This document shows, one piece after another, positions 11,995 through 59,475 of a stretch of DNA of 64,000 bases. Location: the NCBI GenBank assembly GCA_965242525.1, contig OZ251459.1:2137515-2201514 (forward strand), written 5' to 3'. Source of the DNA: an uncultured Candidatus Binatia bacterium. GTDB lineage: Bacteria; Desulfobacterota; Binatia; UBA9968; JAJDTQ01. The notes below the pieces were generated by a model. That model searched no databases. It had not been told where the DNA came from and saw only the letters and a program-made list of their open reading frames with translations. Both the position numbers and the translations under genes were made by a program. Each line of letters opens with the position of its first letter. The stretch's first letter is position 1.

Positions 11995-12023
11995 TTGACA
12001 CTTCACGGAGTATGGAGTATAGG
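11995..12023 (+). promoter_or_regulatory. Sigma-70-like promoter of the low-GC operon (-35 TTGACA, 17-nt spacer, -10 TATAGG)
   Basis: TTGACA at 11995-12000 and TATAGG at 12018-12023, read directly. It lies in the 110-nt gap exactly where GC content drops. Confidence 0.4.
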
Positions 12024-12071
12024 CCCCGACTAACTGATGCTTGGCCGCTTTCCCATGACAGGAGTTGTACC

Positions 12072-13106: not shown

Positions 13107-13536
13107 AACACACAGAAACCTGGTCCTCCAGGTCGCAAGAGCAATTGAGGACCGTTATGCCCAAATATCCGTCATTACCGATTTGCAGCAGAACCCTGGA
13201 GATACAGTGCCACCAATGATCTGCGGCCACCGCCCTGATGTTTACGCCTACGAAGAAGTACAGCGCCTCTGCATCGTTGCAGAGGCCAAGACCGATTCGG
13301 ACCTCGACAATCTTCATACGCAACGCCAGTTGATGGCCTTTATCAACTATCTTAGCGACAGAGAAAAGAGCTTGTTCATCTTGTCGGTAAAGGGCACCAA
13401 GTCCGACCACGGGAAGACTCTGCTGCGGTTCACTCATCGACTTCTGGCTGTAAAGAACGTGCCTCTTGAAATTTTCGATGGTCATGATTTCTGGTCCTTC
13501 AACCTACAGGACGAAACTACGTGGCATTTACTTTGA
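13093..13536 (+). CDS. Small PD-(D/E)XK-like (restriction-endonuclease fold) protein
   Basis: 147 aa. GHRPDVYAYEEVQRLCIVAEAKT fits the D-x(n)-E-x-K arrangement. It overlaps the upstream gene by 14 nt and the downstream gene by 16 nt. Confidence 0.45.
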   Translation: MSQSETHRNLVLQVARAIEDRYAQISVITDLQQNPGDTVPPMICGHRPDVYAYEEVQRLCIVAEAKTDSDLDNLHTQRQLMAFINYLSDREKSLFILSVKGTKSDHGKTLLRFTHRLLAVKNVPLEIFDGHDFWSFNLQDETTWHLL

Positions 13537-15020: not shown

Positions 15021-16051
15021 AGATCCTCAAGGAATCGGTGCAGGTAGTCAAGGAAGACTATGTGCATATCTACGAACTGAAGTTCCTGAAAGACAACCCT
15101 CGCGTATACGCGTGTACACATGAGTACCCGAATTTCGATGACTTGATGGAAGAGCAACAGCAAGACGTCATTTTCGATAAACTAAAGGAAGAGACGAGCG
15201 TCAAAAATCTCCGTCCTGAGATAGAACGGCATGGGGGCCTTATGGAGCCGATACTGGTTCGGCTCGATACACGCCAAGTCATTGAAGGCAATTCTCGCCT
15301 CGCTGTATACCGCCTGCTGTACGAAGGGACGAGGGAGAGCGACTGGGAATATATTCCGTGCAGCATGGTAAGTGGGCTAACAGAGCGTCAACAGGCCGCT
15401 TTTCTCAACGAAGTCCATGTGAAGGGCAAGACTCAATGGTCCCCCTACGAAAAGGCCAACTTCGCCTATGTCCGCAGGGAACGAGGTTGGAGTCTCAGTG
15501 ACATCGCCGAACTTTTCGGAGAGTCAGTAAATACGATTAGAACCCGAGTAAAGGTCATTGAAACCATGAAAGGGAACTCGGATGGCACAAAATCTCATTT
15601 CAGTCATTACGATGTACTAGTTCGAATACCTGCTATAGAGAAGGAGCTTTCTCAAAATGACGAGCTGCGCAATCTTCTTTACGCGGAGATCAAGAAGATC
15701 GATCCCAGAGACGACAAGAGCGCGAATGAGGACGAAACTGGCGAAGAGGACGAAAGCGGTTTCACCGCGCAGGAACTCAGGAGGAAACTGCCCGCGATCA
15801 TCGAGAAACCTAAGGTTTTGCGAAAATATATCGAAGGTGAAATAGATTTGGACGAAGGCTACCAGCGTGCGAAGATCAGCAACGCGGAAACCCGAGTTCG
15901 GAAAGCAAAAGGACTTTTGGAGGACGTTTCTCGAGAAGAGGTGACAAGGCTCGAACAGAATCGCTTCAATGCGTTCAAACAGGATGTACGGAGGATATCC
16001 CGCGTAGTGGAGCGCCTCAATGAGATCACAAAGGACCGTGAGACACCATGA
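15008..16051 (+). CDS. ParB/Srx-fold N-terminal domain protein (ParB-like 2)
   Basis: LKFLKDNPR...PILVRLDTRQVIEGNSRLAVYRLL. It aligns with ParB-like 1 beyond the N-domain (W.YEKA..., HTH-like SLSDIAELFGESVNTIRTRV). The ATG at 15008 is preceded by GGAGA. Confidence 0.7.
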   Translation: MAEIKILKESVQVVKEDYVHIYELKFLKDNPRVYACTHEYPNFDDLMEEQQQDVIFDKLKEETSVKNLRPEIERHGGLMEPILVRLDTRQVIEGNSRLAVYRLLYEGTRESDWEYIPCSMVSGLTERQQAAFLNEVHVKGKTQWSPYEKANFAYVRRERGWSLSDIAELFGESVNTIRTRVKVIETMKGNSDGTKSHFSHYDVLVRIPAIEKELSQNDELRNLLYAEIKKIDPRDDKSANEDETGEEDESGFTAQELRRKLPAIIEKPKVLRKYIEGEIDLDEGYQRAKISNAETRVRKAKGLLEDVSREEVTRLEQNRFNAFKQDVRRISRVVERLNEITKDRETP

Positions 16052-17688
16052 TTCCGTACAATGTACTGCTAGTCGAGCCCGGATACTTCAACAAGTATCC
16101 GCCGCTTGGGTTAATGAAGTTGGCAGCATATCATGGCGCTCGCGGTCGTGGCGACCGGGTCCGCTTCGTCAAAGGTGAGGATCGTGAAGTGTCGCTGGAG
16201 TCGTGGGATCGAGTTTATGTAGCTACATTGTTCAGTTTTGAATGGGCGCGTACTGCCGCGGCAATTGATTTTGCCATCCGGACCGTGCGCGGCCAGACAG
16301 AACGGGTATTTGTAGGCGGCATCGCCGCATCGCTTATGCATGAGCACTTTGAGAACGAACCACGATGGTCGGGTGTCCGTTTTATTAAAGGACTATTGAC
16401 TGATCCGCCGGCAGTTGCGCTGCGTTTATCAGCAGAAGATTGTGATTTTGGCTTTGACGACCACCAGGGACCCCCTATCGAGGAGTTGATTCCAGACTAC
16501 TCCATTCTCGATCAGATCGAATATTCCTATCCTGTCCGAGACGCCTACTTTGGATACGCTTCACGTGGTTGCGTTCGGAAATGTGCGTTCTGTGGCGTTC
16601 CTAAACTGGAAGGCGCTCAGCGCGAAATGCCTTCCCTTACTTCCTTGGTCAAAGGAATCGAAGATGCATACGGACCCAAGAAGGACCTGGTGTTGATGGA
16701 TAATAACGTCACGGCATCCCTGCGATACAAGGAGATAATTGCTGAAATCCGGGATCTCGGCTTCACGCCAGGCGCTAGGCTCGAACGCAGTGGGCGACCG
16801 CCGATCAAGCGACGCGTGGATTTCAATCAAGGCGTTGACGCGAGGATTCTTGCCAAGTCCCCGCTCTTTCTTAGGGAAATGGCAAAAATCTGTATCAGTC
16901 CTCTTCGTATCGCCTTTGACCACCTTGGGGTACGAAAAGTATATGAGACTTCTGTTCGAATGGCAGCACACCACGGAATCACCTCCTTATCAAACTATAT
17001 GCTCTATAACTTTATGGACACTCCCGCAGATCTATACGACCGCATGCGTTTGAATATTACCCTCAATAACGACTTGGGCATCCGTATTTGGTCATTTCCG
17101 ATGCGTTATCAGCCAGTCTATCTCAAGGACCGTTCCCACGTAGGCAAAAATTGGACGAGATACCAACTACGCTCCTTTCAGATTATGCTGCAGGCGACTC
17201 GAGGGGTTGTTAGCGGCAACCCTTCCTTCTTCATGCGGGCTTACGGAGAAGACAAACGCGACTTCGAACAACTTTTGAGTTTGCCACATGCTTTCATTTT
17301 TCACCGTGATTACTACGAGAGAGGACCAGGACGAGGCATCCGAGATGACTATGAGACGGCACGACGGCGCCTTTCCAAGTCTCAAGAACAGGAATTGCTT
17401 GGTTTGCTGGAAGGCTCGGACAGTGTACCGGGTTTTCGAAGGGATCGGCTTCGCTCTTTGGTAGCCGACCCTGGCATTGACACATCTATTCGTAGAGTCA
17501 TTCGATTTCACTTGCTGGATACAAAAGAGAAACCGCAGAACCCCATTCTGCCGCTCTTCCCCGACCTTAATCCTGATCCAGCTTTCCCTGACGACGATGA
17601 ACTTGTCGAGGACGCCGGACTCTTTGATCACGAACACGCCTTGGAACAATCTGAAAAGGCCATCAAAGGAAACCATCATGGTCAATGA
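16048..17688 (+). CDS. Radical SAM protein with B12-binding-like N-terminal domain
   Basis: ASRGCVRKCAFCGV contains the CxxxCxxC motif. The N-terminus VLLVEPGYFNKYPPLGLMKLAAY resembles the B12-binding-domain radical SAM class. ATGA overlap with the upstream gene at 16048-16051. Confidence 0.8.
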   Translation: MIPYNVLLVEPGYFNKYPPLGLMKLAAYHGARGRGDRVRFVKGEDREVSLESWDRVYVATLFSFEWARTAAAIDFAIRTVRGQTERVFVGGIAASLMHEHFENEPRWSGVRFIKGLLTDPPAVALRLSAEDCDFGFDDHQGPPIEELIPDYSILDQIEYSYPVRDAYFGYASRGCVRKCAFCGVPKLEGAQREMPSLTSLVKGIEDAYGPKKDLVLMDNNVTASLRYKEIIAEIRDLGFTPGARLERSGRPPIKRRVDFNQGVDARILAKSPLFLREMAKICISPLRIAFDHLGVRKVYETSVRMAAHHGITSLSNYMLYNFMDTPADLYDRMRLNITLNNDLGIRIWSFPMRYQPVYLKDRSHVGKNWTRYQLRSFQIMLQATRGVVSGNPSFFMRAYGEDKRDFEQLLSLPHAFIFHRDYYERGPGRGIRDDYETARRRLSKSQEQELLGLLEGSDSVPGFRRDRLRSLVADPGIDTSIRRVIRFHLLDTKEKPQNPILPLFPDLNPDPAFPDDDELVEDAGLFDHEHALEQSEKAIKGNHHGQ

Positions 17689-19186
17689 AGCAAGTGCTAT
17701 GACGACGACGACACGGCAGTCACTTGACTCGATTGGCAGCGACATTCTCAACCTAATTACCCTTGGAATGTACAATAACCCTCTTGCCATCTATCGCGAG
17801 TACATCCAAAACGCTGCGGATGCGCTTGCACGTTCTGGAAGTCGCACTGACGGCCAAGTGGCAATCCATTTTGACAAGTCCGCATCGTCCATAACGATTC
17901 GAGACACCGGACCAGGCCTATCACCGAAGTCCGCAAGACGCGCACTTTTGCCCATTGCCAAGAGCGAAAAGGAATTCCAGGCTGAACGCGGTTTTCGCGG
18001 CATCGGTCGCTTGTCCGGACTGGCTTTCGGCAAATCCGTCACCTTTCTTACGCGAGCACGAGGAGACCAGCCAGCAACAAGTGTCAAATGGGACGGACTG
18101 AAACTTCGGACAAACATTGACCAGCGCAAACCGATTGAACGGGTACTCAAGGAAGCTGTTACGGTAGAACCGCTAACAAGACCAGATTTCCCGCCACACT
18201 TCTTCGAGGTCCAAGTGAACGGTATCGCGCGACACGCAGCGGGACTGATACTCAATCGAGACGCGGTCCGGACGTACATTGGCGAAGTATGTCCTGTCCC
18301 TATTTCCCGATCCTTCCCCTTTGCAACCCGGATCCTCGCTTTATTCCAAGCGGAAGCTCCTTTATTCGCGCTGAACCTTGTCTTGGATGGCACCCCCGGC
18401 CCTGTCACACGCCCCTTTGACGACGCGATTCGATTTTCGGATGACAAGCTAGACAAGTTCACGGAGTTTCAGGAAATCAGGATCCCATCGGTAGACCGAG
18501 AAGGACATGCGGCAGTTGGCTGGATTGCACATTCAAATTATTTGGGCGCTATTCCCAAGGAACACGCCATTCGAGGTGTTCGAGCACGTGCGGGCAACAT
18601 ACAGATTGGGAACGAAGCTGTCTTTGATCACCTTTTTTCTGACGATCGCTTTAATCGCTGGTGTGTTGGCGAACTCCATATCATGGACTCGCGTATCATC
18701 CCCAATGCTCGCCGTGACTACTTTGAGCCGGGTCCACACATCCGAAACCTGGAGAACCAGCTTATCGCTGTATTTCGAGAAGTAGTTGCGCGATGCAGGA
18801 AGGCATCCGCAGAACGCAACAGGGAACGAAGGTTGCAGTCCGGATTGCGGGAAATCGAGGATGCTTATCACTTGGCACAATCCGGCTATTTGTCCATGGG
18901 AGATTCTCAAGCCTTGATCGCGCGCGGTCTCAACCGTCTCCAAGACTTCCGGAACAACTGGAGCGAGATGAACGCCTGTGCAAAGACGGAATTGGAAAAC
19001 CTTGAATCGAACCTTCAAAAATTCCAGCCTTCACATAGTCATCTACCCGTGGCTAATTTGTCAAAGTTGGAAGCGGCAACGTACAGAAAGCTTTTTCACG
19101 CTTTGGTAGAGACGTCCCCTTCCCCGCGCATTGCCAAAGAAACAATCGAAGCTGTCCTTGTCCACCTACAGCGCAGGGTCGCATGA
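17678..19186 (+). CDS. GHKL-superfamily ATPase (HATPase_c_3 / MORC- or Hsp90-like)
   Basis: 502 aa from the ATG verified at 17678. N-box REYIQNAADAL, G1 IRDTGPGL, G2 ERGFRGIGRLSGLAFG. It overlaps the radical SAM gene by 11 nt. The ORF-track start at 17477 is rejected because it lies inside the radical SAM gene. Confidence 0.75.
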   Translation: MVNEASAMTTTTRQSLDSIGSDILNLITLGMYNNPLAIYREYIQNAADALARSGSRTDGQVAIHFDKSASSITIRDTGPGLSPKSARRALLPIAKSEKEFQAERGFRGIGRLSGLAFGKSVTFLTRARGDQPATSVKWDGLKLRTNIDQRKPIERVLKEAVTVEPLTRPDFPPHFFEVQVNGIARHAAGLILNRDAVRTYIGEVCPVPISRSFPFATRILALFQAEAPLFALNLVLDGTPGPVTRPFDDAIRFSDDKLDKFTEFQEIRIPSVDREGHAAVGWIAHSNYLGAIPKEHAIRGVRARAGNIQIGNEAVFDHLFSDDRFNRWCVGELHIMDSRIIPNARRDYFEPGPHIRNLENQLIAVFREVVARCRKASAERNRERRLQSGLREIEDAYHLAQSGYLSMGDSQALIARGLNRLQDFRNNWSEMNACAKTELENLESNLQKFQPSHSHLPVANLSKLEAATYRKLFHALVETSPSPRIAKETIEAVLVHLQRRVA

Positions 19187-19199
19187 GAGGAAACGGCGT

Positions 19200-20681
19200 T
19201 CAGAGTTTCTCTACGCGGCTTGCCCTCGAACGCAGAAAGTTGAAATCGGCGTCGTCACCGACATCCGGCATCGCGAGCAAGCGTTCGATAAAAGTCTCCG
19301 GCTGACGCTGCTTCCGCTGTGTCTTCAAGCCGCCCCGCCATTCCAGCAGGACGACTTCTTCTCGAAGCTGTTCGCCGGTCACCGTCGAAGGGCGTGTCCG
19401 AAAGAGGTCGATGCCCATGACCCGGTAGTGCAACGACCGGGCCAAGTCGGCCAGGAGTCGGCCCGTGGGGATACGGACCCGCAGATACGACGCCTGGTCG
19501 CCGACCACGTAGGCGAGCCTGGCCCCCGGCTTGAGGACGGCGCGGAGCGACGCGAGGTGTTTCGCCATGCCGCCGAAGTAGAGCCGCGTGACGCGCGGAT
19601 ACAACCGCTCGAAGCCGGAGGTCTTGCCCAACTCGATACGGCGCTTCTCGATGGCTTCGGCGATGTCCCGTATCTCGGCATGGTCGGCAACCTCACGATC
19701 GTCCGTGTCCGCCTTATAGACGCCCCGGGTGTTGGACCGGATCAGGTTCCGTTTCATGGACCGCAATTCCTGCCGGTCGCGCACCAGTCCCAGGATGACG
19801 GACTCCAACCGTGTGGTGCGCGTGTAGTCCTTTTCGTTGGGATACGGCGGGGAGGTGATCACGGTATCGACGGACCCCGGCTCCAGCGCTCGATGGATCG
19901 CGCGGGCGTCCGCCTCCACGACCCGGGACGGCGCGTCCGTCCGGCCCTTGAGGAGTTCCAGGTCGCCGACGATGGTTCGGAAGCAGTCGAGCCAGGCGTC
20001 GACGGCCGGCGCGTCGTCCTTGATCCGGCCCACGCCGACTTCGGGACCGAACTTCAGGTTCCCGATGCGCAGCACCAGCGCGTTGGCAAGCGCCAGGCGG
20101 CCATAGGGCCGCAGTTGCGGCCGGTCGTGCCGGTCCATGGCGTCCAGCAGGGTCAGCGTCTTGTGGAGGGGCAGCGGACTGATGGAGTCCTTCAGCAGCA
20201 GTTTCGACCGGTCGGGGGGAAGACCCTGCAACACGGGTGGTCCGCTCCCGTTCGCGGCGAAGAGCGGAAGCCCCGCGGCCTCCCGGATGCCCTGCCGTTC
20301 CAGCGTCCTTCGCGCCGCCGCCGCAACCCGACGGGAATAGTCCGAAAGCGCCGCCGGGTCGGCCGACCAATCGACCTTCACCGAACTCGCAAAAGACCCC
20401 ATGGGGTTCGACTCGACGCCCACGCTGGGAATGCCGAGTTTCTTGCACTCCACCAACGTCGTGCCCGTGCCGCAGAAGGGGTCCAGGACCGTATGGGAGC
20501 GGTCCACGCCGAGCCGTTCCATGTAGTCCCTTACCAAGTGGGGCGGGAACGACAGGACGAACCGATACCATTGATGGGCCGGACGGTCTTCAGGCCGCAG
20601 CCTGTTCCGGTCGCCTTGGGTTCCGCCGGTGTCGGCAACCGCGGCCCGGCCGCTGCGCGTATCGGAAATCAGATCCGCCAT
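19200..20681 (-). CDS. DNA methyltransferase (motif I before motif IV SPPY; N6-adenine or N4-cytosine type)
   Basis: LDPFCGTGTTLVECKKLG (AdoMet-binding motif) and VDTVITSPPYPNEKDY (catalytic motif). The ATG at 20679-20681 is verified as 'cat'. The gene has host-like high GC and its stop lies 13 nt from the GHKL gene's stop. Confidence 0.75.
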   Translation of the reverse strand: MADLISDTRSGRAAVADTGGTQGDRNRLRPEDRPAHQWYRFVLSFPPHLVRDYMERLGVDRSHTVLDPFCGTGTTLVECKKLGIPSVGVESNPMGSFASSVKVDWSADPAALSDYSRRVAAAARRTLERQGIREAAGLPLFAANGSGPPVLQGLPPDRSKLLLKDSISPLPLHKTLTLLDAMDRHDRPQLRPYGRLALANALVLRIGNLKFGPEVGVGRIKDDAPAVDAWLDCFRTIVGDLELLKGRTDAPSRVVEADARAIHRALEPGSVDTVITSPPYPNEKDYTRTTRLESVILGLVRDRQELRSMKRNLIRSNTRGVYKADTDDREVADHAEIRDIAEAIEKRRIELGKTSGFERLYPRVTRLYFGGMAKHLASLRAVLKPGARLAYVVGDQASYLRVRIPTGRLLADLARSLHYRVMGIDLFRTRPSTVTGEQLREEVVLLEWRGGLKTQRKQRQPETFIERLLAMPDVGDDADFNFLRSRASRVEKL

Positions 20682-20745
20682 CGGAGTTCCTGGCCGAACG
20701 GGTCGAGGGAGTCCAGCCTTTCCATGGCAACACGTGCGAGAACCG

Positions 20746-21459
20746 TCAGTCCACCGGAACGCAGGTGACCTCCACCCGTCCGTCACCGTGCAGTCGAACC
20801 GCGTTGACCGTGCCGGCGTAGGTCGGAGACCCCGAGTAGTAGGCGGGCACCCCGTCTTCGCCCACGCGCACGGCGCGGTTCCAGTGGCCCAGAGCCACGT
20901 AGTCGGCGCGGCTGGCGGCCAAGTTCTCCTGCCGGATCAGCCACGAGCCCAGCAGCAGGCCCGCCCGGGGCGCGTCCTCCACGTAATGGCCGTGGGCCAC
21001 CGCCAACTGCCAGCGGGTGCGCCGCTCGGGCGGCTCGGGCAGGGGCATCATGTCCAGGTAGTCCACGTGGGGACGGCCCCATACCTCCAGGTCCAGCTCG
21101 GGGAAGCCGCTCCGGTCCTCGGTGAGGCCCAGCACGCGCACGTTACCCGCGCCGGCGAACTCGGACCGGCGATAGACCGAATCAGGAGTCAGGGGGTCGT
21201 GGTTGCCCGGCAGGACCACGATGGGGAGGCCGGAGTCGGCCATGACTCCGGCCGCGTCCTCGATGAACCGGGGACCCTGGCGGTTGTGGTCGAAGGTGTC
21301 CCCCGCCAGGATCACCAAGTCGGCGCCCTGGGCGCTCGCAATCGAGAGCACCTGTTGCAGCACCGGCAGGTTGCCGGAATCGTCTTCGTTCAGGACGCTG
21401 TCCGCGCCCAGGTGGAGGTCCGATGTGTGGACGACGAGGACTTCACGCGGTGCGTTCAT
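20746..21459 (-). CDS. Calcineurin-like metallophosphoesterase (SbcD/Mre11-like fold)
   Basis: VVHTSDLHLG, LILAGDTFDH, VVLPGNHD and AVAHGH motifs. Start verified at the ATG at 21459. Confidence 0.75.
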   Translation of the reverse strand: MNAPREVLVVHTSDLHLGADSVLNEDDSGNLPVLQQVLSIASAQGADLVILAGDTFDHNRQGPRFIEDAAGVMADSGLPIVVLPGNHDPLTPDSVYRRSEFAGAGNVRVLGLTEDRSGFPELDLEVWGRPHVDYLDMMPLPEPPERRTRWQLAVAHGHYVEDAPRAGLLLGSWLIRQENLAASRADYVALGHWNRAVRVGEDGVPAYYSGSPTYAGTVNAVRLHGDGRVEVTCVPVD

Positions 21460-43752: not shown

Positions 43753-44022
43753 ATGGAAAACATGGAAGACAGAGAGCTATTGAAACGCATCGAATTGAAT
43801 CCAGGGGTGATGGGAGGGAAGGCCGTCATCAAGGGCACACGTTTGACGGTGGAACACATCCTCAACCTGCTCGCCCACGGCGAGACCGTTGAAAAGATCA
43901 CGGCGGAGTACGACGGAATCGCCCAAGAAGACGTTTTGGCCTGCGTCCTGTTTGCCGCGAAAGCCCTGGGGGACACCACCTTCGCACCGTTGGCTGCAGA
44001 GACGCCTGGATGCGGTTCCTGA
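43753..44022 (+). CDS. DUF433-family antitoxin-like protein
   Basis: IELNPGVMGGKAVIKGTRLTVEHILNLLAHGETVEKITAEYDGIAQEDVLACVLFA matches the DUF433 pattern as I remember it. Confidence 0.75.
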   Translation: MENMEDRELLKRIELNPGVMGGKAVIKGTRLTVEHILNLLAHGETVEKITAEYDGIAQEDVLACVLFAAKALGDTTFAPLAAETPGCGS

Positions 44023-44363
44023 TAGACGAATGCGTTGGCCCCACGGTAGCGCAGTGGTTGCGACAAGAAGGGCACGACGTATTCTCCGTCTTCGAGGAGG
44101 CGCGCGGCGCAACCGACGAAGAACTCGTTCGCAAAGCGCACCGGGAGAACCGAATTCTCCTGACGACCGACAAGGATTTTGGCGAGAAAGCATTCCGAGA
44201 ACGCAGGTCGCACAGGGGGATTGTCTTGCTGAGGCTGCAAGACGAACGCCCAATGAACCAAGTGAGGGTCATTCGGCGCCTCCTACAGCTTTACGAAAAT
44301 CAACTGCCGGATCGATTCTCGGTAGTCACGGAGGCTGGCGTTCGGTTCGCCATGAACATGTAG
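44010..44363 (+). CDS. DUF5615-family PIN-like (Mut7-C-like) toxin candidate
   Basis: MRFLIDECVG...ATDEELVRKAHRENRILLTTDKDFGE. It overlaps the DUF433 gene by 13 nt. Confidence 0.7.
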   Translation: MRFLIDECVGPTVAQWLRQEGHDVFSVFEEARGATDEELVRKAHRENRILLTTDKDFGEKAFRERRSHRGIVLLRLQDERPMNQVRVIRRLLQLYENQLPDRFSVVTEAGVRFAMNM

Positions 44364-45186: not shown

Positions 45187-45396
45187 CCGTCCGGGGCTCC
45201 CGCCCAGTCAGGCACGACTGCGTGGGATGCTGTTGCTCAGCCGGCCTCCCTTGATGAGCCTCTTCCCCGCCAAGCACGGCTACATCCTTACCCTGGCCGC
45301 CACGTGGGCGGGAAGCATCGGAGGGCAGGGGATAGCTGCCAACGGACCGTCTCCTTGACACGACTCGAAATGTAAAGCAGGATTTCACAACCGAAA

Positions 45397-45450
45397 GGAA
45401 CCACTGAACAACGATCCTCGTTCATCCTGAGCGAAGGCGAAGGTCGCGCC
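45397..45450 (-). repeat. Degenerate fragment of the MITE-like family
   Basis: GGAACCACTGAACAACGATC (TIR-like) followed by CGTTCATCCTGAGCGAAGGCGAAGGTCGCG (a diverged core in inverted orientation). Confidence 0.4.
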
Positions 45451-45677
45451 TTTCCATAGGGAGAAGGAACTCAAGCCGAGTTGGATCAGACGGTCCAAAA
45501 GGCAACCAGAGATCTTGCCATGGTCACATCCACGATTACCCTAAGGGCAGACCACGCTGCCCGGCTTCGATCCGTTGCGACAGCTATCCATGGCCGACGG
45601 ACCTTACAGCTACCAGACCGACGCGGATTCCTGTGCACGGACCACCAGCAGACTGAACGCGCGAAGGAGGTCTTGTC

Positions 45678-47024
45678 GTGGACGCGAGAGAACTGATCTT
45701 GCAGGACGTACGCTGCTTCCAGGACGAACAGCGTGGCCGCTTGCGGCCCGTCACGCTGCTCGTGGGCGAGAACAGTACCGGCAAGACGACCTTCCTGGGC
45801 TGTTACAGGGTGTTGCATGGGATGTTTTCCAATCCAGGGATCGGCGAATTCCTGGATTTCAACGGAGAGCCTTTCGTCATGGGTTCGTTCCGCGACATCG
45901 TCCGGTCACGACGCGGCCCGAGCGGCCGTATCGACGAGTTCAAGATCGGGGTCCGAGTCGATCGATCGCCAGACGACGTCATGTCACCGTGTGAGCTGTC
46001 GGTTGCTTTTCGCGAGAAAGGCTCGGAACCGGTGGTCTCGTCCTTGCGTTTCCAGTTCGATTCCGATGCGTTCCTAGAGATGAGTTCAGATGAGGAAGGA
46101 ACCATCGTGCAGATTCCAGGCCTTACCGAGCACGCCAAGGGTGTTCCGCTTGTTCGCACGATGGCCATGTTGGACTTCGTGATCCGCGATCCCGATTTTT
46201 GGGGAATGCCCCCCGGATGGTCAAACTTGGAAACCAGCTTCGAGTATCTCCATGGCCTGTTCTTCCGCCGAGGAGCCGCAAAGAGAAAACACACCGAACT
46301 TCAATGGCCTTTCGACGACGAGCTCCCGCGTTTGCCCGACCTGATTCCGGTCGCACCGCTTCGTTCCAAGCCCAAACGTACCTACGATCCGATACGCGAG
46401 ACCGCTTCCCCGGAAGGGGAACATGTCCCGATGCTGATGATGAGGCTGGATCGCACGGACACGCCGCACTGGAAATCGCTGCACAACGACCTCGTGAAGT
46501 TCGGCCAGGGTTCCGGGCTATTCGCCGACATCAAGGTGAAACGCCACGGCAAGCAGATGAGCGACCCTTTTCAGTTGCAGGTCAAGGTACGATCCGGACC
46601 TCATTCGAACCTCATGGACGTCGGTTACGGCGTCAGCCAGAGCCTGCCGATTCTCGTGGATGTGCTGAAAGGGTCCAGCAGCGGACGCAAGTGCGAGTTC
46701 CTGCTCCAGCAGCCGGAGGTTCACCTGCACCCTCGAGGCCAGGCGGAACTCGCCAGTCTGTTCGTCCAAGCGTTCAAGCAGAGTGGAAACCGGTTCCTGA
46801 TCGAGACCCACAGCGACTACATCATCGACCGCGTGCGCATTTCGGTCCGAAAAGGGCTGCTGAAGCCCGACGACGTGTCCCTTCTCTACTTCGAACCCAA
46901 GAGCAACGCCGTCGAGATCCACAACATGACCCTGGACGAGCATGGAAACCTCCTTGGCGCGCCGAGGGGATACCGTGACTTCTTCCTGAAGGAAACCGAC
47001 AGACTGCTGGGGTTCACGGACTGA
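45678..47024 (+). CDS. ABC/OLD-type AAA ATPase (AAA_15/21-like with DUF3696-like C-terminus)
   Basis: Walker A LVGENSTGKTT, signature-like GYGVSQSLPIL, Walker B FLLQQPEVHLHP, and H-loop IETHSD. The GTG start at 45678 is preceded by GAAGGAGG. Confidence 0.75.
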   Translation: MDARELILQDVRCFQDEQRGRLRPVTLLVGENSTGKTTFLGCYRVLHGMFSNPGIGEFLDFNGEPFVMGSFRDIVRSRRGPSGRIDEFKIGVRVDRSPDDVMSPCELSVAFREKGSEPVVSSLRFQFDSDAFLEMSSDEEGTIVQIPGLTEHAKGVPLVRTMAMLDFVIRDPDFWGMPPGWSNLETSFEYLHGLFFRRGAAKRKHTELQWPFDDELPRLPDLIPVAPLRSKPKRTYDPIRETASPEGEHVPMLMMRLDRTDTPHWKSLHNDLVKFGQGSGLFADIKVKRHGKQMSDPFQLQVKVRSGPHSNLMDVGYGVSQSLPILVDVLKGSSSGRKCEFLLQQPEVHLHPRGQAELASLFVQAFKQSGNRFLIETHSDYIIDRVRISVRKGLLKPDDVSLLYFEPKSNAVEIHNMTLDEHGNLLGAPRGYRDFFLKETDRLLGFTD

Positions 47025-47036
47025 GGGCCACCGAAG

Positions 47037-47516
47037 ATGTGCATCATCGTGGACGCCAACAAGCTCGATGTCTTTCTCGCCGACCCGGCCGACGAGAATT
47101 CCAGGCCGATACGCAGGTGGCTAAGTCAGGGCGCGGGGAGCATCGTGTATTCGACGGAAGGCAAGTTTGCGCAGGAGATCCGAGGTCGAGCCAAGGCCAA
47201 GCTGGCCGATTACGTTCGAGCCGGCAGAGCGAAGCACGTCCCCGCGAGCCTGTTCGCCGACGAAGAACGCAAGCTGGAAACTCACGCAGACCTCCGCTCC
47301 GATGATCCGCACGTGCTCGCGTTGGCGAGAGCGACCGGTGTACGTCTCCTGTACACCGCAGACGGGAAACTCACGTCGGACTTCAAGAACAAGAACATCA
47401 TCGACCGGCCGAGGGGCAAGGTTTATTCCGGCGCAGGCAATGCCAATCTGCTGACCCCCTCGGCATGTGCGTCGTCATGGCCAAGGTCTGCTTCGAAATC
47501 ATGGCCGACTTCATAG
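47037..47516 (+). CDS. PIN-like domain protein (predicted nuclease partner of the ATPase)
   Basis: MCIIVDAN... and SDDPHVLALARATGVRLLYTADGKL resemble PIN acidic-residue motifs. It starts 12 nt after the ATPase stop. The assignment is tentative. Confidence 0.45.
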   Translation: MCIIVDANKLDVFLADPADENSRPIRRWLSQGAGSIVYSTEGKFAQEIRGRAKAKLADYVRAGRAKHVPASLFADEERKLETHADLRSDDPHVLALARATGVRLLYTADGKLTSDFKNKNIIDRPRGKVYSGAGNANLLTPSACASSWPRSASKSWPTS

Positions 47517-49364: not shown

Positions 49365-49598
49365 ATGCTCACGTCCGCGATTACCTCGAAGGGCCGGACG
49401 ACGCTGCCCAAACCGGTTCGGGAGGCCCTTGGAGTGGGGGCCGGAAACCGTGTGCGCTACGTCATCCTCGACAACGAGGTTCGGGTTCTGCCCATGCGGC
49501 CCATCGGGCGGTTGTTCGGCGCACTGAAGCACGACGGCCCGCGGGTTACGGTGGAGGACATGGAACGCGCCATCACGGAAGGGGCGTGCGAGGAATGA
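49365..49598 (+). CDS. AbrB/SpoVT(MazE)-family antitoxin
   Basis: 77 aa. MLTSAITSKGRTTLPKPVREALGVGAGNRVRYVI is the swapped-hairpin motif. Its stop forms an ATGA junction with the next ATG at 49595-49598. Confidence 0.75.
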   Translation: MLTSAITSKGRTTLPKPVREALGVGAGNRVRYVILDNEVRVLPMRPIGRLFGALKHDGPRVTVEDMERAITEGACEE

Positions 49599-50926
49599 GC
49601 GCGTTGGACACCAACTCCGCAGCCAGTAGAAAACCGCCGGCTAGCTGGCTCTATCGTCCACTGTTTCCGGCTCATTGGGAGCGCAGGCCACTTTACTCCA
49701 TGGCGCAATGGGTCAACGGACTGGCCTATCGGAATATCGAGTTCAGTGCGGCGGGACGCCCGATTATCAAGATCGCAGAGATCAAGGGCGGCATCTCGGA
49801 TCAAACCAGGTTTACATATCAAAACTTCGACGAATCGGTACGCGTGCGTGCAGGCGACCTATTGTTTTCCTGGTCTGGACAGCCGGAAACTTCCATTGAT
49901 GCGTTCCGGTGGCGTGGTCCGGAAGGCTGGTTGAACCAACATATCTTTCGTGTCACTCCCGCCGCCGGAATCGATGCCACCTTCTTTTTCTATCTCTTGC
50001 GATACCTGAATGCTCATTTCGTTGCCATTGCACGGAACAAGCAGACGATAGGTCTCGGACACGTCACAAAGCACGACCTGGAAAATATCGAGGCGGCTCT
50101 ACCCGACCGCCAGGAGCAACGCGCCATCGCTCACATCCTGGGCACGCTGGACGACAAGATCGAGTTGAACCGGCGCATGAACGAGACGCTGGAGGCCATG
50201 GCGCGGGCGCTGTTCCAGTCATGGTTCGTCGATTTCGATCCCGTGCACGCCAAGATGGAAGGCCGTGATACCGGCCTCCCCAAGCCAATCTCCGACCTCT
50301 TCCCCGATCACCTCGTGGATTCCGAGCGTGGCGAGATCCCCGAGGGATGGAAAATCAAGTCCCTGAGAGAATGTTTCCGTCTTACGATGGGGCAATCACC
50401 CCCGGGCAACACCTACAATGACCGTAGCGACGGGTTGCCTTTCTTTCAGGGACGAACTGACTTCGGGTTTCGATTTCCCGAGAATCGGAAATTCTGCACT
50501 GCTCCAACGCGGGTCGCTCAACCTGGGGATACGCTTGTCAGTGTCAGAGCGCCCGTGGGAGACATCAACATGGCATGGGAAGAATGCTGCATTGGACGCG
50601 GCGTTGCCGCACTCCGGCACCAGTCGGGTTCAAGCTCGTTCACCTATTACTCGGCTTGGGCAGTACAGAACAAAATCAGAGAGTATGAGGACACGGGTAC
50701 GGTGTTCGGAGCCATCAATCGAAAACAATTTGAAGCACTCCAGACGCTGGAACCCTCACCGGATATTGTCAATGCGTTCGACGCCCAAGCTGGACCGGTA
50801 GATGTCCGCATCAGGAACAACGTAACCGAGTCCCGAATCCTTACGACCCTGAGAGAAATCTTGCTGCCCAAGTTGATCTCCGGCGAAACCCGCCTCCGAG
50901 ACGCCGCGGAGCAGGCGGATTTGTAG
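49595..50926 (+). CDS. hsdS: Type I restriction-modification specificity subunit (orphan), with vapC-like first codons
   Basis: Two target-recognition domains separated by the conserved spacer LPDRQEQRAIAHILGTLDDKIELNRRMNETLEAMARALFQSWFVDFDP, plus the distal conserved helix TTLREILLPKLISGE. The N-terminus MSALDTN resembles a PIN/VapC start. No hsdM or hsdR occurs in the window. Confidence 0.85.
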   Translation: MSALDTNSAASRKPPASWLYRPLFPAHWERRPLYSMAQWVNGLAYRNIEFSAAGRPIIKIAEIKGGISDQTRFTYQNFDESVRVRAGDLLFSWSGQPETSIDAFRWRGPEGWLNQHIFRVTPAAGIDATFFFYLLRYLNAHFVAIARNKQTIGLGHVTKHDLENIEAALPDRQEQRAIAHILGTLDDKIELNRRMNETLEAMARALFQSWFVDFDPVHAKMEGRDTGLPKPISDLFPDHLVDSERGEIPEGWKIKSLRECFRLTMGQSPPGNTYNDRSDGLPFFQGRTDFGFRFPENRKFCTAPTRVAQPGDTLVSVRAPVGDINMAWEECCIGRGVAALRHQSGSSSFTYYSAWAVQNKIREYEDTGTVFGAINRKQFEALQTLEPSPDIVNAFDAQAGPVDVRIRNNVTESRILTTLREILLPKLISGETRLRDAAEQADL

Positions 50927-51127
50927 GCCATCCCATGAAAAACCAATCGAAGTATTCCAGTTCCGAGACCATCGCCGAGACTTTTCGATATCTGGGACTT
51001 GACGATCCAAAACTGCGCAGTCGATTACGAGGGTTCTCCAAACCGGGGATATCGCCTCCTCGAGTCGAGAGACGCAGCAGCAAACTTGTCACTCGGAACA
51101 ACACCGCGCCAGATCAAGGAGACGATC

Positions 51128-51854
51128 ATGCCCAACTGGAATCAACTACTTGACGAGATTCGCGCCGCTGGCAGCATGTATGATGTGGTTCGCCGTCGGT
51201 ATCTGTCCAGGATCCATGAACTGACCGGTCGAAATGTGATAGTCTATTCCTCAGGTTGGCTTCAAAGAGGCAACTTGCCGGGCGTAGAGATCAACGATGA
51301 TGACAAGAACGGATTCATGACCGTCATTCATCAGATGAAGCGCGATATCGGCCTCGATCTTGTCTTGCACACCCCTGGCGGCGATGCGGCTGCCATCGAA
51401 TCCATCGTCGATTACCTGCGCTCCATGTTTCAAACAGACATACGGGCGCTCGTGCCACAGCTCGCCATGTCCGGCGGTACGATGATTGCATGCGCATGCA
51501 AGGAAATATTCATGGGAAAGCAGTCGAGTCTCGGTCCGATTGATCCTCAATTGGGAGGTATTCCAGCCCATGGCTTGGTGGAAGAGTTCAACCGCGCCAA
51601 ACTTGTCCATCGAACGATGCCGGGAGATGGGCCTGAAGGTCACCGAACTCGAAAAGAGTCAAGAGCTACAGGACGCGGTACTTTCATTGCACCATGCTTG
51701 CATGCTCACATTTACAGCTACTTCGGCCTTCAAGATCATCGAAAATCATAGGGGAATTGCATTCATCAAGATGGCACAGCCGGTCCTGGTCTCCGGGGCG
51801 CCGACCGGCAACCCGGAGCCAAGCAGGGCGCCACTGGAGCAACCGGAGAAGTGA
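51128..51854 (+). pseudogene. SDH-family (ClpP-fold, SppA-like) serine protease, disrupted by frameshift/internal deletion near 51600
   Basis: The N-part in one frame (VLHTPGGDAAAIESIV..., LAMSGGTMIACACKEIFMG, GPIDPQLGG) loses similarity after EEFNRAK. The C-part (LSIERCREMGLKVTELEKSQELQDAVLSLHHACMLTF) continues in another frame from ~51603. Confidence 0.55.
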
Positions 51855-51905: not shown

Positions 51906-53147
51906 ATGATCCCGATGATCCCACAGCCCCATGAACCACCGCGCGTCCAGCGCTTGAAAGTCCGTAACTTCCGCGCCTTGCGGGAGGTCGAGATCAGGAA
52001 CCTGACGCCGATGACGGTGCTGCTCGGTCCCAATGGCAGCGGCAAGTCCACCGTGTTCGACGTGTTTGCGTTCCTCTCGGAGTGCTTCGCATCCGGACTT
52101 CGGCGCGCATGGGACCGTCGCGGCCGGGCCAGGGAGATCAGGACCCGCGACGCCGAAGGGCCGATGACGATCGAGCTTCAATACCGCGAGCAGCCGAAAC
52201 CGCCGCTCATCACCTACCACTTGGAAGTGGACGAGCACCGGGGCGCGCCGGTGGTCGTCCACGAATGGCTGCAATGGACGCGGGGCAGAGCAGGGAAGCC
52301 GTTCCGTTTCCTCGAATACCGGAACGGCTTGGGCAAAGCGACCAGCGGCGAGGCGCCCGATGCGGAAGACGAGAGGCGGGAGATCCCGCTCAAATCGCCT
52401 GATCTGCTGGCGGTCAACGCGCTTGGGCAGTTCCAGGAACACCCGCGCGTGGCGGCGCTTCGCGACTTCATCATGGGCTGGCACGTTTCGTACCTCTCCG
52501 CAGACAGTGCGCGCGGCCAACCCGAAGCGGGGCCGCAGGAACGGTTGACCACCACCGGCGACAACCTCGCCAACGTGGTCCAGTACCTGAGCGAGCAGCA
52601 TCCGGCGCGGCTCGACGCCGTCTTCGAGACGCTGCGCAGGCGCGTGCCTCGTATCGATCGCATGTGGACCGAGCTCATGCCGGACGGCCGGCTGTTGCTG
52701 CAAATCAAGGACGCCCCGTTCAGCCACCCGGTTCTGTCGCGCTTCGCCTCCGACGGCACACTGAAGATGCTGGCCTACCTGGTGCTGCTGCACGACCCGG
52801 AACCGCCGCCGTTCATCGGTATCGAGGAGCCGGAAAACTTCCTGCACCCGCGGTTGCTTCCCGAGTTGGCGGAGGAGTGCCGCGCGGCCTGCGAGCGCAC
52901 GCAGTTGATGGTCACTACCCACTCGCCGTTCTTCCTGAACGCGCTGAGACCCGAGGAAGTCCGCGTCCTGTGGCGCGACGAAGCGGGCCATACGCGGGTG
53001 CAGCGGGTCGCCGACCTGGACCGTGTCCGTGCTTTCGTGGATGAAGGCGCACTGCTCGGCGATCTGTGGATGGAAGGCCAGTTCGGCGTGGGCGATCCGT
53101 TGACCCGGCATGGAGCTCCGGCGCGCGGCAGCGGAGATCGTCGATGA
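51906..53147 (+). CDS. ABC/OLD-type AAA ATPase (AAA_15/21-like)
   Basis: [10 protein letters not shown], Walker [12 protein letters not shown], signature-like [11 protein letters not shown], Walker [15 protein letters not shown], and H-loop VTTHSP. Confidence 0.8.
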
Positions 53148-53761
53148 CGGCCGCGCGGCACCTGGAGTTCCTGGTCGAAGAACAGTCGATGGAGGCTTTT
53201 CTGCGAGGACTGCTACCGCGCCTGCTTCCCGAAGGCTGCACGTTCGAAATTCGTGTATTCCAAGGCAAACGCGATCTGATGCGACGACTCGATAGTCGTC
53301 TGCGCGGCTACAGACACTGGCTGTCCGATGAATACCGGCTCGTGGTGATGGTCGATTGCGACCGTGACGATTGCCGAACGCTCAAGGCGCGGCTCGAAGA
53401 TGCGGCAGCCGGTTCGGGACTGCACACTCGTTCGCGAGCCGAAGATGACCGCTGGCAGGTGCTCAACCGCATCGTGATCGAAGAACTGGAGGCGTGGTAT
53501 TTCGGCGATTGGGAAGCTGTGCGCAACGCCTTTCCCCGAGTGTCTTCCACAATCCCGAATAAACCGCGTTACGGGAAACCCGACGCGATCCCGGACACAT
53601 GGGAGGAATTCGGGCGCATACTGAAAAAGCACGGATACCACAGGGCCGGGCTGCGCAAGATCGAAGCCGCACGGCTCATCGCGCCGAAGATCAATCCGGC
53701 GCGCAACCGTTCGCCGAGCTTTGCGGCCTTTCGCGATGTCCTCGCCGAGGCGACCGCATGA
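53144..53761 (+). CDS. DUF4276-like (Toprim-related) protein, partner of the ATPase
   Basis: [23 protein letters not shown] and an acidic cluster [15 protein letters not shown] overlap with the ATPase stop at 53144-53147. The family is assigned from memory of its consensus. Confidence 0.65.
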
Positions 53762-53840
53762 GGCGCCTGCCGACCGGGAGCGGCGGCGCATAACGGGACG
53801 ACGGGCGGCGCGGCACAGGGACGGCGCAAGGACAGAATCG

Positions 53841-55439
53841 ATGACACAATCGGAAACGGGTTCGGACCCGCGCGCAGCGCGGCGGAAACTCCCCATCGGT
53901 ATCCAGACCTTCCGCGAGATCCGCGAAGACGGCTGCTACTACGTGGACAAGACCGCCTACGTCCAGCGGCTGGTGGACGAAGGCAAGCACTACTTCCTGT
54001 CGCGTCCGCGACGCTTCGGCAAGAGCCTCCTGGTGGACACCATCAAAGAGCTGTTCGAAGGCAACGAGCCGCTGTTTCGGGGTCTCGCCATCCACGACAG
54101 GTGGGACTGGTCCGCTCCTCGTCCCGTGCTGCGCTTCGACTTCGGGGACGGCGGCTATGACGAACCCGGCCTCGTGCACAAGGAGGCCGCGGCGCGCCTG
54201 GGCGCCCTGGAGCGGGGGTTCGCGGTCGCCCCCCACGACGACATCGCCCCGGCCCGTTTCCGGCACCTGTTGCAGACGCTGCACGAACGCACCGGCCGGC
54301 GGGCCGCGGTGCTGATCGACGAATACGACAAGCCGATCCTGGACGCGCTGAGGTCGCCGGAGACAGCCCGCGCCAACCGCGACTTTCTGCACGGGTTGTA
54401 CTCCGTCATCAAGTCCGCGGACGCACACGTCGAATTCACCCTGCTCACCGGGGTGAGCAAGTTCTCCAAGGTCAGCCTGTTCTCGGGCTTGAACAACCTC
54501 AAGGACATCACCCTGGACCCGCGCTACTCCGCCATCTGCGGCTACACCGAGGCGGACCTCGACACGGTGTTCGCCCCGGAGTTGCTGGGACTGGACCGGG
54601 GCGAGATCCGCCGCTGGTACAACGGCTACGGCTGGCTCGGCGACGAGAAGGTCTATAACCCCTTCGACATCCTCCTGCTCTTCGACACCCGACGGTTCAA
54701 GGCATGGTGGTTCGAGACCGGCACGCCGACGTTCCTCATCGACACGCTGCTGGAGCGGGGGGTCGGCTCGCTGGCCCTCGAGGACATGCTCGGCGACGAT
54801 GCCTTGCTGTCCGCCTTCGACGTGGGCGCCATCGCCACCGAGGCGCTGCTGTTCCAGACCGGCTACCTCACCATCCATGACGAACGGGACGTGGGCGGAG
54901 AGGCCGCTTACCGGCTGGGCTATCCCAACCGGGAGGTGCGCCAGAGCCTGAACCGGAGCCTGTTGAGCCGCCTCGCGGACGATCCATCCGGCCCGACAGG
55001 GCACCGCGTCCGGCTGTACGACCTGTTGCGGGACAACGATTTCGACGGCATGGAGGCGCTGCTCAGGGCATTCTTCGCCGGGATTCCGTACCAGTGGCAT
55101 ACGAAGAACGACATCGCCGACTACGAAGGCTACTACGCGAGCGTGTTCTACGCCCTGTTCGCGTCCGCGGGGCTGGACATGACGGTGGAAGACAGCAGCA
55201 GCCGCGGGCGGGTGGAACTCACGGTGCGCCTCGACGGCAGCGTGTACCTGTTCGAGTTCAAGGTGGTGGACCCGGCCCCCCCGGGGTCGTCGGCGCAGCA
55301 AAGCGCCGCGATGACCCAGTTGCGCGAGCGGGGCTATGCGGACAAGCACCGGAGTTCCGGCCGGCCGATCCACCTGATCGCAGTGGAGTTCAGCAAGGAG
55401 ACCCGCAACCTGGCCGTGTTCGAGGCAGCGCCGGCCTGA
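53841..55439 (+). CDS. AAA-ATPase_like (PF09820-type) + PD-(D/E)XK (PDDEXK_9-type) protein
   Basis: LPIGIQTFREIREDGCYYVDKTAYVQRLVDEGKHYFLSRPRRFGKSLL is the classic N-terminus of this family. The C-terminal GRVELTVRLDGSVYLFEFKV is nuclease-like. Confidence 0.8.
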   Translation: MTQSETGSDPRAARRKLPIGIQTFREIREDGCYYVDKTAYVQRLVDEGKHYFLSRPRRFGKSLLVDTIKELFEGNEPLFRGLAIHDRWDWSAPRPVLRFDFGDGGYDEPGLVHKEAAARLGALERGFAVAPHDDIAPARFRHLLQTLHERTGRRAAVLIDEYDKPILDALRSPETARANRDFLHGLYSVIKSADAHVEFTLLTGVSKFSKVSLFSGLNNLKDITLDPRYSAICGYTEADLDTVFAPELLGLDRGEIRRWYNGYGWLGDEKVYNPFDILLLFDTRRFKAWWFETGTPTFLIDTLLERGVGSLALEDMLGDDALLSAFDVGAIATEALLFQTGYLTIHDERDVGGEAAYRLGYPNREVRQSLNRSLLSRLADDPSGPTGHRVRLYDLLRDNDFDGMEALLRAFFAGIPYQWHTKNDIADYEGYYASVFYALFASAGLDMTVEDSSSRGRVELTVRLDGSVYLFEFKVVDPAPPGSSAQQSAAMTQLRERGYADKHRSSGRPIHLIAVEFSKETRNLAVFEAAPA

Positions 55440-59342: not shown

Positions 59343-59413
59343 GCCCCCGCCCTCCGGGTCTCTTCCGGAACCTCCGGTCAATTCCGGCTCGACGTGTTTC
59401 TCCCTGTGAAAAA

Positions 59414-59475
59414 GCGCGTCCTTCGACTTCGCTACGCTACGCTCAGGACGAACGGGGCAATCGTTCGGGGTTTCC
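59414..59475 (+). repeat. Truncated copy of the MITE-like family (core + right TIR-like end)
   Basis: GCGCGTCCTTCGACTTCGCTACGCTACGCTCAGGACGAACGGGG followed by CAATCGTTCGGGGTTTCC. Confidence 0.5.

Follow-up and report, generated by a model that had tools for sequence, protein, structure and literature searches.

A DUF3696 ABC ATPase and a stand-alone PIN-fold protein form a two-gene cassette, most likely for phage defence, in an uncultured Candidatus Binatia bacterium

Introduction

HEC-03 (Hma-embedded candidate 3) is a validated pair of a DUF3696 ATP-binding cassette (ABC) ATPase and a VapC-like PIN protein, found embedded in Hma systems, and both of its genes are required for phage defence in E. 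coli (Payne et al., 2024; bioRxiv 10.1101/2024.01.29.577857). Menshen (NsnABC; Millman et al., 2022; Li et al., 2025, PMC12065111) consists of a ParB-DUF262 sensor, NsnA, an ABC plus DUF3696 protein, NsnB, and NsnC, in which an inactive PIN-like N-terminal domain is fused to a C-terminal toxin domain. AlphaFold 3 (AF3) models of an NsnB4-NsnC2 assembly predict that the DUF3696 tails of NsnB clamp the PIN-like domain of NsnC, and NsnB itself has a GxG variant of the ABC signature and EN at its Walker B (PMC12065111). Here we describe a locus resembling both systems, at positions 45678-47516 of a 64,000 nucleotide stretch from an uncultured Candidatus Binatia bacterium (contig OZ251459.1 of assembly GCA_965242525.1, positions 2,137,515 to 2,201,514; this whole stretch is referred to as the window), where the gene for an ABC ATPase is directly followed by one for a small PIN-like protein (ORF2). 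The original prediction for this locus, made from the DNA letters without database searches, could not tie a PIN-like partner to a named system; such partnerships do exist, since HEC-03 pairs a DUF3696 ATPase with a PIN protein and the NsnB of Menshen partners the PIN-like domain of NsnC. We read the locus as a two-gene conflict cassette, most likely acting in anti-phage abortive infection, in which the DUF3696 ABC ATPase gates a PIN ribonuclease. To this reading we assign a probability of about 0.68, with lower confidence in its details.

Gene layout

Both open reading frames (ORFs) lie exactly where the original prediction had placed them, on the forward strand and separated by a spacer of 12 nt between the ATPase stop and ORF2:

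45663-45670, + strand: strong Shine-Dalgarno sequence GAAGGAGG, read from the sequence, 7 nt ahead of the ATPase GTG start
45678-47024, + strand: ATPase gene, 448 aa, GTG start
47037-47516, + strand: ORF2, the PIN protein gene, 159 aa

The motifs that had been quoted for the two proteins are all found in their translations, namely GENSTGKTT (residues 30-38), GYGVSQSLP (316-324), LLQQPEVHLHP (342-352) and ETHSD (376-380) in the ATPase, and IIVDAN (residues 3-8), SDDPHVLALA (88-97) and LLYTADGKL (104-112) in ORF2.

The ATPase is an NsnB-like ABC protein with an altered Walker B

The window ATPase matches the Pfam families AAA_15 (3e-12) and AAA_21 (3e-11), both above cut-off, which contain SMC/OLD-type ABC ATPases. 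Its best PADLOC model is Menshen NsnB, matched over the full length at 2.3e-43, and all 19 divergent members of the ATPase family that were scanned match the same model (best 1.3e-48). A second full-length PADLOC match is to PDC-M55A (4e-38), while the AriA, PtuA, GajA and OLD models match at the ABC core only (E values of 1e-6 to 1e-15 for the first three). A sequence-profile search of the PDB returned the OLD-family nuclease 6p74 at 4e-10 and PtuA at 1e-4. Foldseek matches are all to ABC heads (GajA, the retron-Eco8 effector, SMC, Rad50, RecF and JetC), but their TM-scores are low because the AlphaFold 2 (AF2) model is only partly confident, so that they confirm the fold class only. Pfam, PADLOC, the PDB profile search and Foldseek thus agree with the proposed identification of this protein as an ATPase of the ABC/OLD clade that has a DUF3696-like tail and lacks a fused nuclease.

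Motif conservation was read from an alignment of 73 family members, and the principal features of the protein are as follows:

45765-45788, + strand: Walker A (P-loop) GENSTGKT, residues 30-37; G30, N32, S33, G35 and K36 invariant in the 73 members
45918-46337, + strand: hypervariable beta-rich insert, residues ~81-220, from top-residue frequency and the AF2 model
46617-46640, + strand: ABC signature-like motif DVGYGVSQ, residues 314-321; V315-G316-Y317-G318 and Q321 invariant
46698-46733, + strand: degenerate Walker B FLLQQPEVHLHP, residues 341-352; Gln-Gln replaces the Asp-Glu dyad
46803-46817, + strand: H-loop (switch) ETHSD, residues 376-380; 99-100% conserved
46860-47006, + strand: DUF3696 C-terminal tail, residues 395-443; 20.8 bits in Pfam for the window protein (cut-off 22)

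These motifs stand in the order usual for ABC proteins (Walker A, signature-like motif, Walker B, H-loop) within an ABC head fold. The Walker A consensus, GENS[TS]GK[ST], is essentially invariant in the 73 orthologues, and DVGYGVSQ is a GxG variant of SGG, as in NsnB. The motif set had been described as complete, a description that fails at Walker B, where the Asp-Glu dyad is Gln-Gln in 73 of 73 family members. The surrounding positions are equally fixed, Q344, Q345, P346, E347, V348, H349, H351 and P352 being invariant throughout the alignment, and the Gln-Gln (QQ) Walker B is kept also in distant members of 38% identity (L088-L091). Replacement of the catalytic Glu by Gln in ABC ATPases preserves ATP binding and head dimerisation and blocks hydrolysis. 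Given this enzymology and the invariant QQ at the catalytic dyad, the protein probably acts as a switch that binds ATP and hydrolyses little or none of it.

The DUF3696 tail falls just short of the Pfam cut-off in the window protein and is matched in 16 of 19 divergent orthologues (best 5e-6). By analogy with the AF3 NsnB-NsnC models (PMC12065111) it is predicted to be where the PIN partner docks. Over its C-terminal 160 residues the ATPase also matches phrog_21420, a 654-position phage family of unassigned function in PHROG, at 4.6e-32, so that phage-encoded relatives of the tail exist. The insert at residues ~81-220 is by far less conserved, with a mean top-residue frequency of 0.23-0.49 versus 0.7-0.9 in the core; it is modelled mostly as strands and helices (pLDDT about 65-92) and is a candidate trigger-sensing surface.

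ORF2 is a predicted PIN ribonuclease

ORF2 divides into two parts:

residues 1 to ~140: PIN core
residues ~145-159: clade-specific tail, modelled with low confidence

Scanned alone, ORF2 has no match in Pfam (E<=0.01), NCBIfam, PADLOC or PHROG, and searches of PDB sequences with the single protein or a profile gave chance-level matches only (RuvBL2, Mg-chelatase and the Nob1 PIN domain at E 1.4). Its assignment comes from member-by-member scans of its family and from structure. Among 111 diverse family members, 50 individually match Pfam PIN and 10 match PIN_3; the relatives P0046 and P0081, 63-70% identical to ORF2, and eight others score 26-29 bits on PF01850 against a cut-off of 23.6, covering positions 1-116 of the 120 in the profile. 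The predicted ORF2 structure is a Rossmann-like alpha/beta/alpha PIN fold whose closest structural relatives are VapC toxins.

In the predicted structure the acidic residues D6, E47, D90 and D109 occupy the canonical PIN D-E-D-D positions, which are the end of beta1, helix 3, the N-terminus of the post-beta3 helix and the place after beta4: D6 follows strand 2-5, E47 lies within helix 43-47, D90 precedes helix 91-100 and D109 comes after strand 104-106. All four are at least 90% conserved in ORF2 alignments down to 32% identity. Fold and residue conservation together predict a catalytically competent PIN ribonuclease. The PIN-like character proposed for this ORF, which would have fallen with another fold, is thereby borne out, with the fold adopted in the model and the acidic residues kept.

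The ORF2 family comprises more than 400 close homologs and 1,739 clusters at 50% identity, and its proteins are almost all stand-alone and 144-155 aa long. Its own invariant residues include C2, W28, S88, H92, Y130 and C144. Two of these, Cys2 (47040-47042) and Cys144 (47466-47468), are invariant or nearly so across the PIN family and could form a metal site or a disulfide; the HEC-03 PIN family likewise has invariant cysteines, at C23, C27 and C150.

The two genes travel together

Linkage was assessed in 79 reference-genome loci encoding an ORF2 relative. In 76 of them the ATPase gene directly precedes that of the relative, in the same orientation, and one of the 76 (L011) keeps a C-terminal ATPase fragment only; of the three unpaired loci one is cut by a contig end and two hold N-terminally truncated PIN remnants. 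The same gene order recurs in eight further loci (L001-L003, L088-L091 and L092), including members 31-40% identical to ORF2 with spacers of 0-4 nt, and L092 is the syntenic nearest relative of the window (ATPase identity 99%). Over all loci outside the window the spacer is 0-50 nt. The expectation that the pair would be conserved as neighbours elsewhere, for which co-occurrence had been suggested as a check, is therefore confirmed. The pairwise identities of the ATPase and PIN proteins also correlate across 68 loci (Mantel r 0.88, reached in 0 of 999 permutations).

Clustering of the flanking genes revealed no third conserved gene, the largest flank family being present at 6 of 76 loci, and no DUF262/NsnA gene was seen in the eight contigs that have Pfam-annotated gene calls. 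In one lineage of Gammaproteobacteria the ATPase gene is preceded by a DUF8091 gene whose N-terminus is Fic-like (L001 5471-6436), and the gene call of the syntenic locus L002 (5289-7988) has one Fic-DUF8091-ATPase fusion of 899 aa for the corresponding region; the Fic-DUF8091 part may be an accessory or sensor domain peculiar to this lineage, or else an artefact of gene calling or a frameshift. DUF8091 was rejected as a conserved third gene, since its upstream copy occurs in a single lineage only (L001/L007).

The flanks differ in every lineage, and the hosts are patchily spread over about 11 phylum-level lineages that include Gamma- and Alphaproteobacteria, Acidobacteriota, Spirochaetia, Latescibacterota, Poribacteria, Chloroflexi, Planctomycetota, Calditrichota, Rhodothermales and Entotheonella. 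A search of 185,579 species genomes yielded 105 matches, a count limited by the search patterns. Strict linkage, co-evolution, varied flanks and wide host range together mark the pair as a two-gene cassette that is self-sufficient and moves horizontally. Most of the genomes with the cassette are metagenome-assembled and belong to lineages characteristic of marine sponge microbiomes (Poribacteria, Entotheonella, Poriferihabitans/-aceae, Azotimanducaceae, Vicinamibacterales, Arenicellales and Latescibacterota), which suggests habitat-linked horizontal spread. The ORF2 family, at about 1,700 clusters at 50% identity, is enriched in sponge-symbiont lineages.

Comparison with HEC-03, Menshen and other systems

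For the comparison with HEC-03 we used the tested Pseudomonas cichorii proteins WP_025259138 and WP_025259137 (Payne et al., 2024, Table S2). The two systems share a two-gene operon in which a DUF3696 ABC ATPase of ~450 aa is followed immediately by a stand-alone VapC-like PIN protein of ~155 aa. Their ATPases are homologous over nearly the full length (24% identity, E 4e-15), and both have a degenerate Walker B (xQ-PE-HLHP). With the same architecture and gene order, homologous ATPases, and DUF3696 and a VapC-like PIN in both, the cassette might simply be a member of HEC-03 and hence nothing new. We consider this unlikely, as the proteins themselves part company on several counts. The window ATPase matches the HEC-03 ATPase model (PDLC04148) over the C-terminal third only (residues 260-430) and scores better on NsnB (7.5e-23 and 2.3e-43 respectively), whereas the true HEC-03 ATPase reaches 5.4e-231 with the HEC-03 model and 2e-52 with that of NsnB. 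The diagnostic motifs differ, being LLQQPE, GENSTGKT and DVGYGVSQ here and MEQPE, GTNSSGKS and DVGFGVSQ in HEC-03, so that QQ stands against EQ at Walker B. The HEC-03 PIN model (PDLC04147 in PADLOC) is reached by none of the 111 ORF2-family members at E<=0.01; as a control, the same model gives 9e-86 for the genuine HEC-03 PIN and 1e-37 for a homolog of 38% identity. BLASTP of ORF2 against the HEC-03 PIN gave no alignment, and hhalign of the two families gave a probability of 22-46%, confined to the generic motif-3/4 region. ORF2 is rejected as a member of the HEC-03 PIN family on BLASTP, hhalign and the controlled PADLOC scan combined. Finally, HEC-03 was found embedded in Hma systems and the cassette described here stands alone, in variable contexts.

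With Menshen the cassette shares the ABC head with its DUF3696 tail, the GxG signature variant, a non-canonical Walker B and a downstream partner that starts with a PIN-fold domain. It differs in having no upstream NsnA (the ParB-DUF262 plus ParBDB sensor) in the window or in the eight annotated contigs, and no conserved third gene in the flank clustering of the other 76 loci. ORF2, unlike NsnC, is a single PIN domain of ~145 aa that keeps the D-E-D-D residues and has no fused toxin domain, and the NsnC model of PADLOC matches neither ORF2 nor its family. Walker B is QQ here and EN in NsnB. A cassette without DUF262, such as this one, lay beyond the reach of the Menshen survey, which took that domain as its seed.

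PARIS (AriA/AriB), Septu (PtuA/PtuB) and Gabija (GajA/GajB) follow a comparable plan in which an AAA_15/AAA_21 ATPase oligomer controls or sequesters a nuclease, either fused or separate, and a phage cue releases it. Their effectors are, however, Toprim/DUF4435, HNH and Toprim plus helicase, in place of PIN, and their ATPases keep a canonical Walker B and are without a DUF3696 tail, similarity being restricted to the ABC core. PDC-M55, an untested PADLOC candidate, is close in its 'A' ATPase model, the full-length match given above, but is a three-gene cassette (FAM_00005>>FAM_02935>>FAM_00004) whose non-ATPase models miss ORF2 and its family. The cassette is best described as a third lineage in the NsnB/HEC-03/PDC-M55A clade of DUF3696 ATPases, with a PIN family of its own. 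Its architecture is already precedented in HEC-03 and Menshen; what lifts it above the routine is a large family missed by the detection tools, the invariant QQ Walker B and a PIN protein predicted to be active.

Proposed function and alternatives

The abortive-infection logic of an ATPase with a separate nuclease, which the original prediction had put forward, is the best reading of the locus given the linkage, the folds and the HEC-03 and Menshen precedents. The surroundings support a role in defence as well, the cassette lying in an island of low third-position GC content (GC3) with a DUF433/DUF5615 pair, a Schlafen AlbA_2 protein, HsdS and a complete HEC-01 pair.

We propose the following mechanism. 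The two genes would be expressed as one operon and, with spacers of 12 nt here and 0-50 nt elsewhere, are probably translationally coupled. The ATPase would oligomerise through ATP-sandwich dimers of its ABC heads, while its DUF3696 tails would sequester the PIN protein in an inactive state, on the pattern of the AF3 NsnB4-NsnC2 models and of the structures of Septu and PARIS. The QQ substitution at Walker B would lock the ATPase in its ATP-bound form. Because there is no separate sensor gene such as NsnA, the phage cue would be read by the ATPase itself, probably through the insert at residues ~81-220. The cue would then free or activate the PIN protein, whose D6-E47-D90-D109 site may cleave an essential RNA (tRNA, rRNA or mRNA), so that translation would stop and the infection would be aborted. 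VapC toxins, the closest structural relatives of ORF2, cleave essential RNA.

Several observations weigh against this reading. None of the 111 ORF2-family members matches a PADLOC model, no PHROG matches the family, and tblastn with the PIN protein found no match in curated plasmid (72,556 plasmids) or phage collections; the case for defence, built from sequence comparison, therefore draws on ATPase homology, architecture and context. The QQ Walker B could also mean that the ATPase is only a scaffold. The AF2 model of the ATPase has a pLDDT of 63.8, with residues 199-350, one third of the protein, at low confidence.

Since ORF2 is structurally closest to VapC toxins, and since the two genes are tightly coupled, co-evolve and adjoin another toxin-antitoxin-like pair, the cassette might be a toxin-antitoxin or addiction module in which the ATPase serves as 'antitoxin' to a VapC-like toxin and which stabilises the genomic island instead of sensing phage. 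This too appears improbable, for VapC antitoxins are small DNA-binding proteins encoded upstream, quite unlike a 450-aa ABC ATPase with a hypervariable insert, an argument that has been raised for HEC-03 as well. The locus has no VapB-type antitoxin, the upstream partner being the 448-aa ATPase, and ORF2 has family-specific invariant residues that set it apart from VapBC. In addition, homologous ATPases act in validated defence systems, and none of the 72,556 plasmids searched gave a match. The toxin-antitoxin explanation nevertheless overlaps with the one preferred here, because PARIS-type systems also sequester toxins. A housekeeping pair for nucleic-acid repair or processing, composed of a RecF/SMC-like ATPase and a PIN nuclease, would fit the weak matches to the RecF, SMC_N and Rad50 head domains, but is very improbable in view of the sporadic distribution (the search-pattern-limited 105 matches among 185,579 species genomes), flanks that differ by lineage, a codon composition atypical for the host and the location in a defence island. 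Decay from a Menshen system that lost NsnA and the toxin half of NsnC would agree with NsnB being the best PADLOC match of the ATPase and with the PIN-like start of NsnC, but the differences from Menshen given above leave it largely refuted and scarcely credible.

Returning to the ATPase-gated PIN ribonuclease, the predicted active site of ORF2 suggests an evolutionary link to, and possibly the origin of, the inactive PIN adaptor of Menshen. A bolder and rather doubtful extension is that the cassette is the minimal sensor-less core behind Menshen, in which a non-hydrolysing E-to-Q NsnB-like ATPase senses phage directly via its insert and gates an active PIN by way of the DUF3696 tails, with the PIN of NsnC as its fossil, and that it represents a widespread, undetected defence family.

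If confirmed, the defence function would add a large family to the phage defences that combine an ABC ATPase with a nuclease. PADLOC v2 has no model for the PIN protein and no specific model for the ATPase, and defence censuses of marine and sponge-associated bacteria would then probably be undercounts. The cassette offers a simple two-protein system for asking how DUF3696 ATPases gate PIN-fold partners, and with its QQ Walker B, a natural variant, one can ask whether gating needs ATP hydrolysis or whether binding is enough.

The region upstream of the cassette

The ATPase gene is preceded by a leader that contains no convincing ORF:

45187-45677, + strand: gene-free leader, 491 nt

An independent gene call in L092 leaves the same gap gene-free, and over the final 40 nt of the leader the sequence is conserved in L004 and L006. 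The gene-free stretch described earlier is thus real, whereas the degenerate miniature inverted-repeat transposable element (MITE) said to lie in it is unsupported, there being no terminal inverted repeats. Scans of 45187-45677 found no Rfam match, no sigma-70 or terminator consensus and no DUF8091 remnant. Readings of this stretch as MITE, small RNA, promoter or terminator were rejected for lack of support. The leader presumably holds the promoter and 5' untranslated region. One segment (45430-45465) recurs once elsewhere in the window at 59398-59433 (36 nt, 86%), and another (45497-45562) matches two related genomes, at L005 8360-8426 and L006 4214-4281 (65 nt, 82-84%); these short GC-rich segments may be a small dispersed repeat without MITE structure.

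The genomic island and its other genes

The stretch bearing the cassette has a GC3 of 0.65-0.83, and the cassette one of 0.72-0.75, compared with 0.90-0.96 in the flanking housekeeping genes, and the codon composition of the cassette is atypical for the host. The genes called upstream of the ATPase encode a DUF433, a DUF5615 and a PQQ-like protein, and the gene-free gap comes after them. The other features of the island are:

43753-44363, + strand: overlapping pair of DUF433 (89 aa) and DUF5615/PIN_10/Mut7-C (117 aa) genes, conserved in L092
47587-49347, + strand: 586-aa protein with Schlafen AlbA_2 and HATPase_c_4, immediately downstream of ORF2
49586-50926, + strand: HsdS, type I restriction-modification specificity subunit (PADLOC 5e-76)
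50999-51751: SDH/ClpP-like protease
51906-53761, + strand: HEC-01-type pair, an ABC ATPase (HEC-01A, 7e-160) and an overlapping DUF4276 (Toprim-like) gene at 53066-53761
53721-55439: AAA-ATPase_like plus PDDEXK_9 protein, following the HEC-01 pair

The DUF433/DUF5615 pair is a second PIN-like module of toxin-antitoxin type, just upstream in the same island. The Schlafen AlbA_2 protein has weak PADLOC matches to pAgo-associated and SIR2-PNTD models and is probably a separate cargo gene of the island, because it is not kept beside the cassette in other lineages. No HsdM or HsdR was identified among the scanned island genes, which makes HsdS an orphan S subunit. The HEC-01 pair is a second ABC-ATPase-plus-nuclease module, 5 kb from the cassette.

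A second low-GC island occupies ~12000-20800 of the window, with a GC content of 0.48-0.57 compared with 0.65-0.71 around it and ORFs without a clear Pfam family; an AAA_22/AAA_16 protein (10369-11961) lies at one border and an N6/N4 DNA methylase (19200-20786) at the other.

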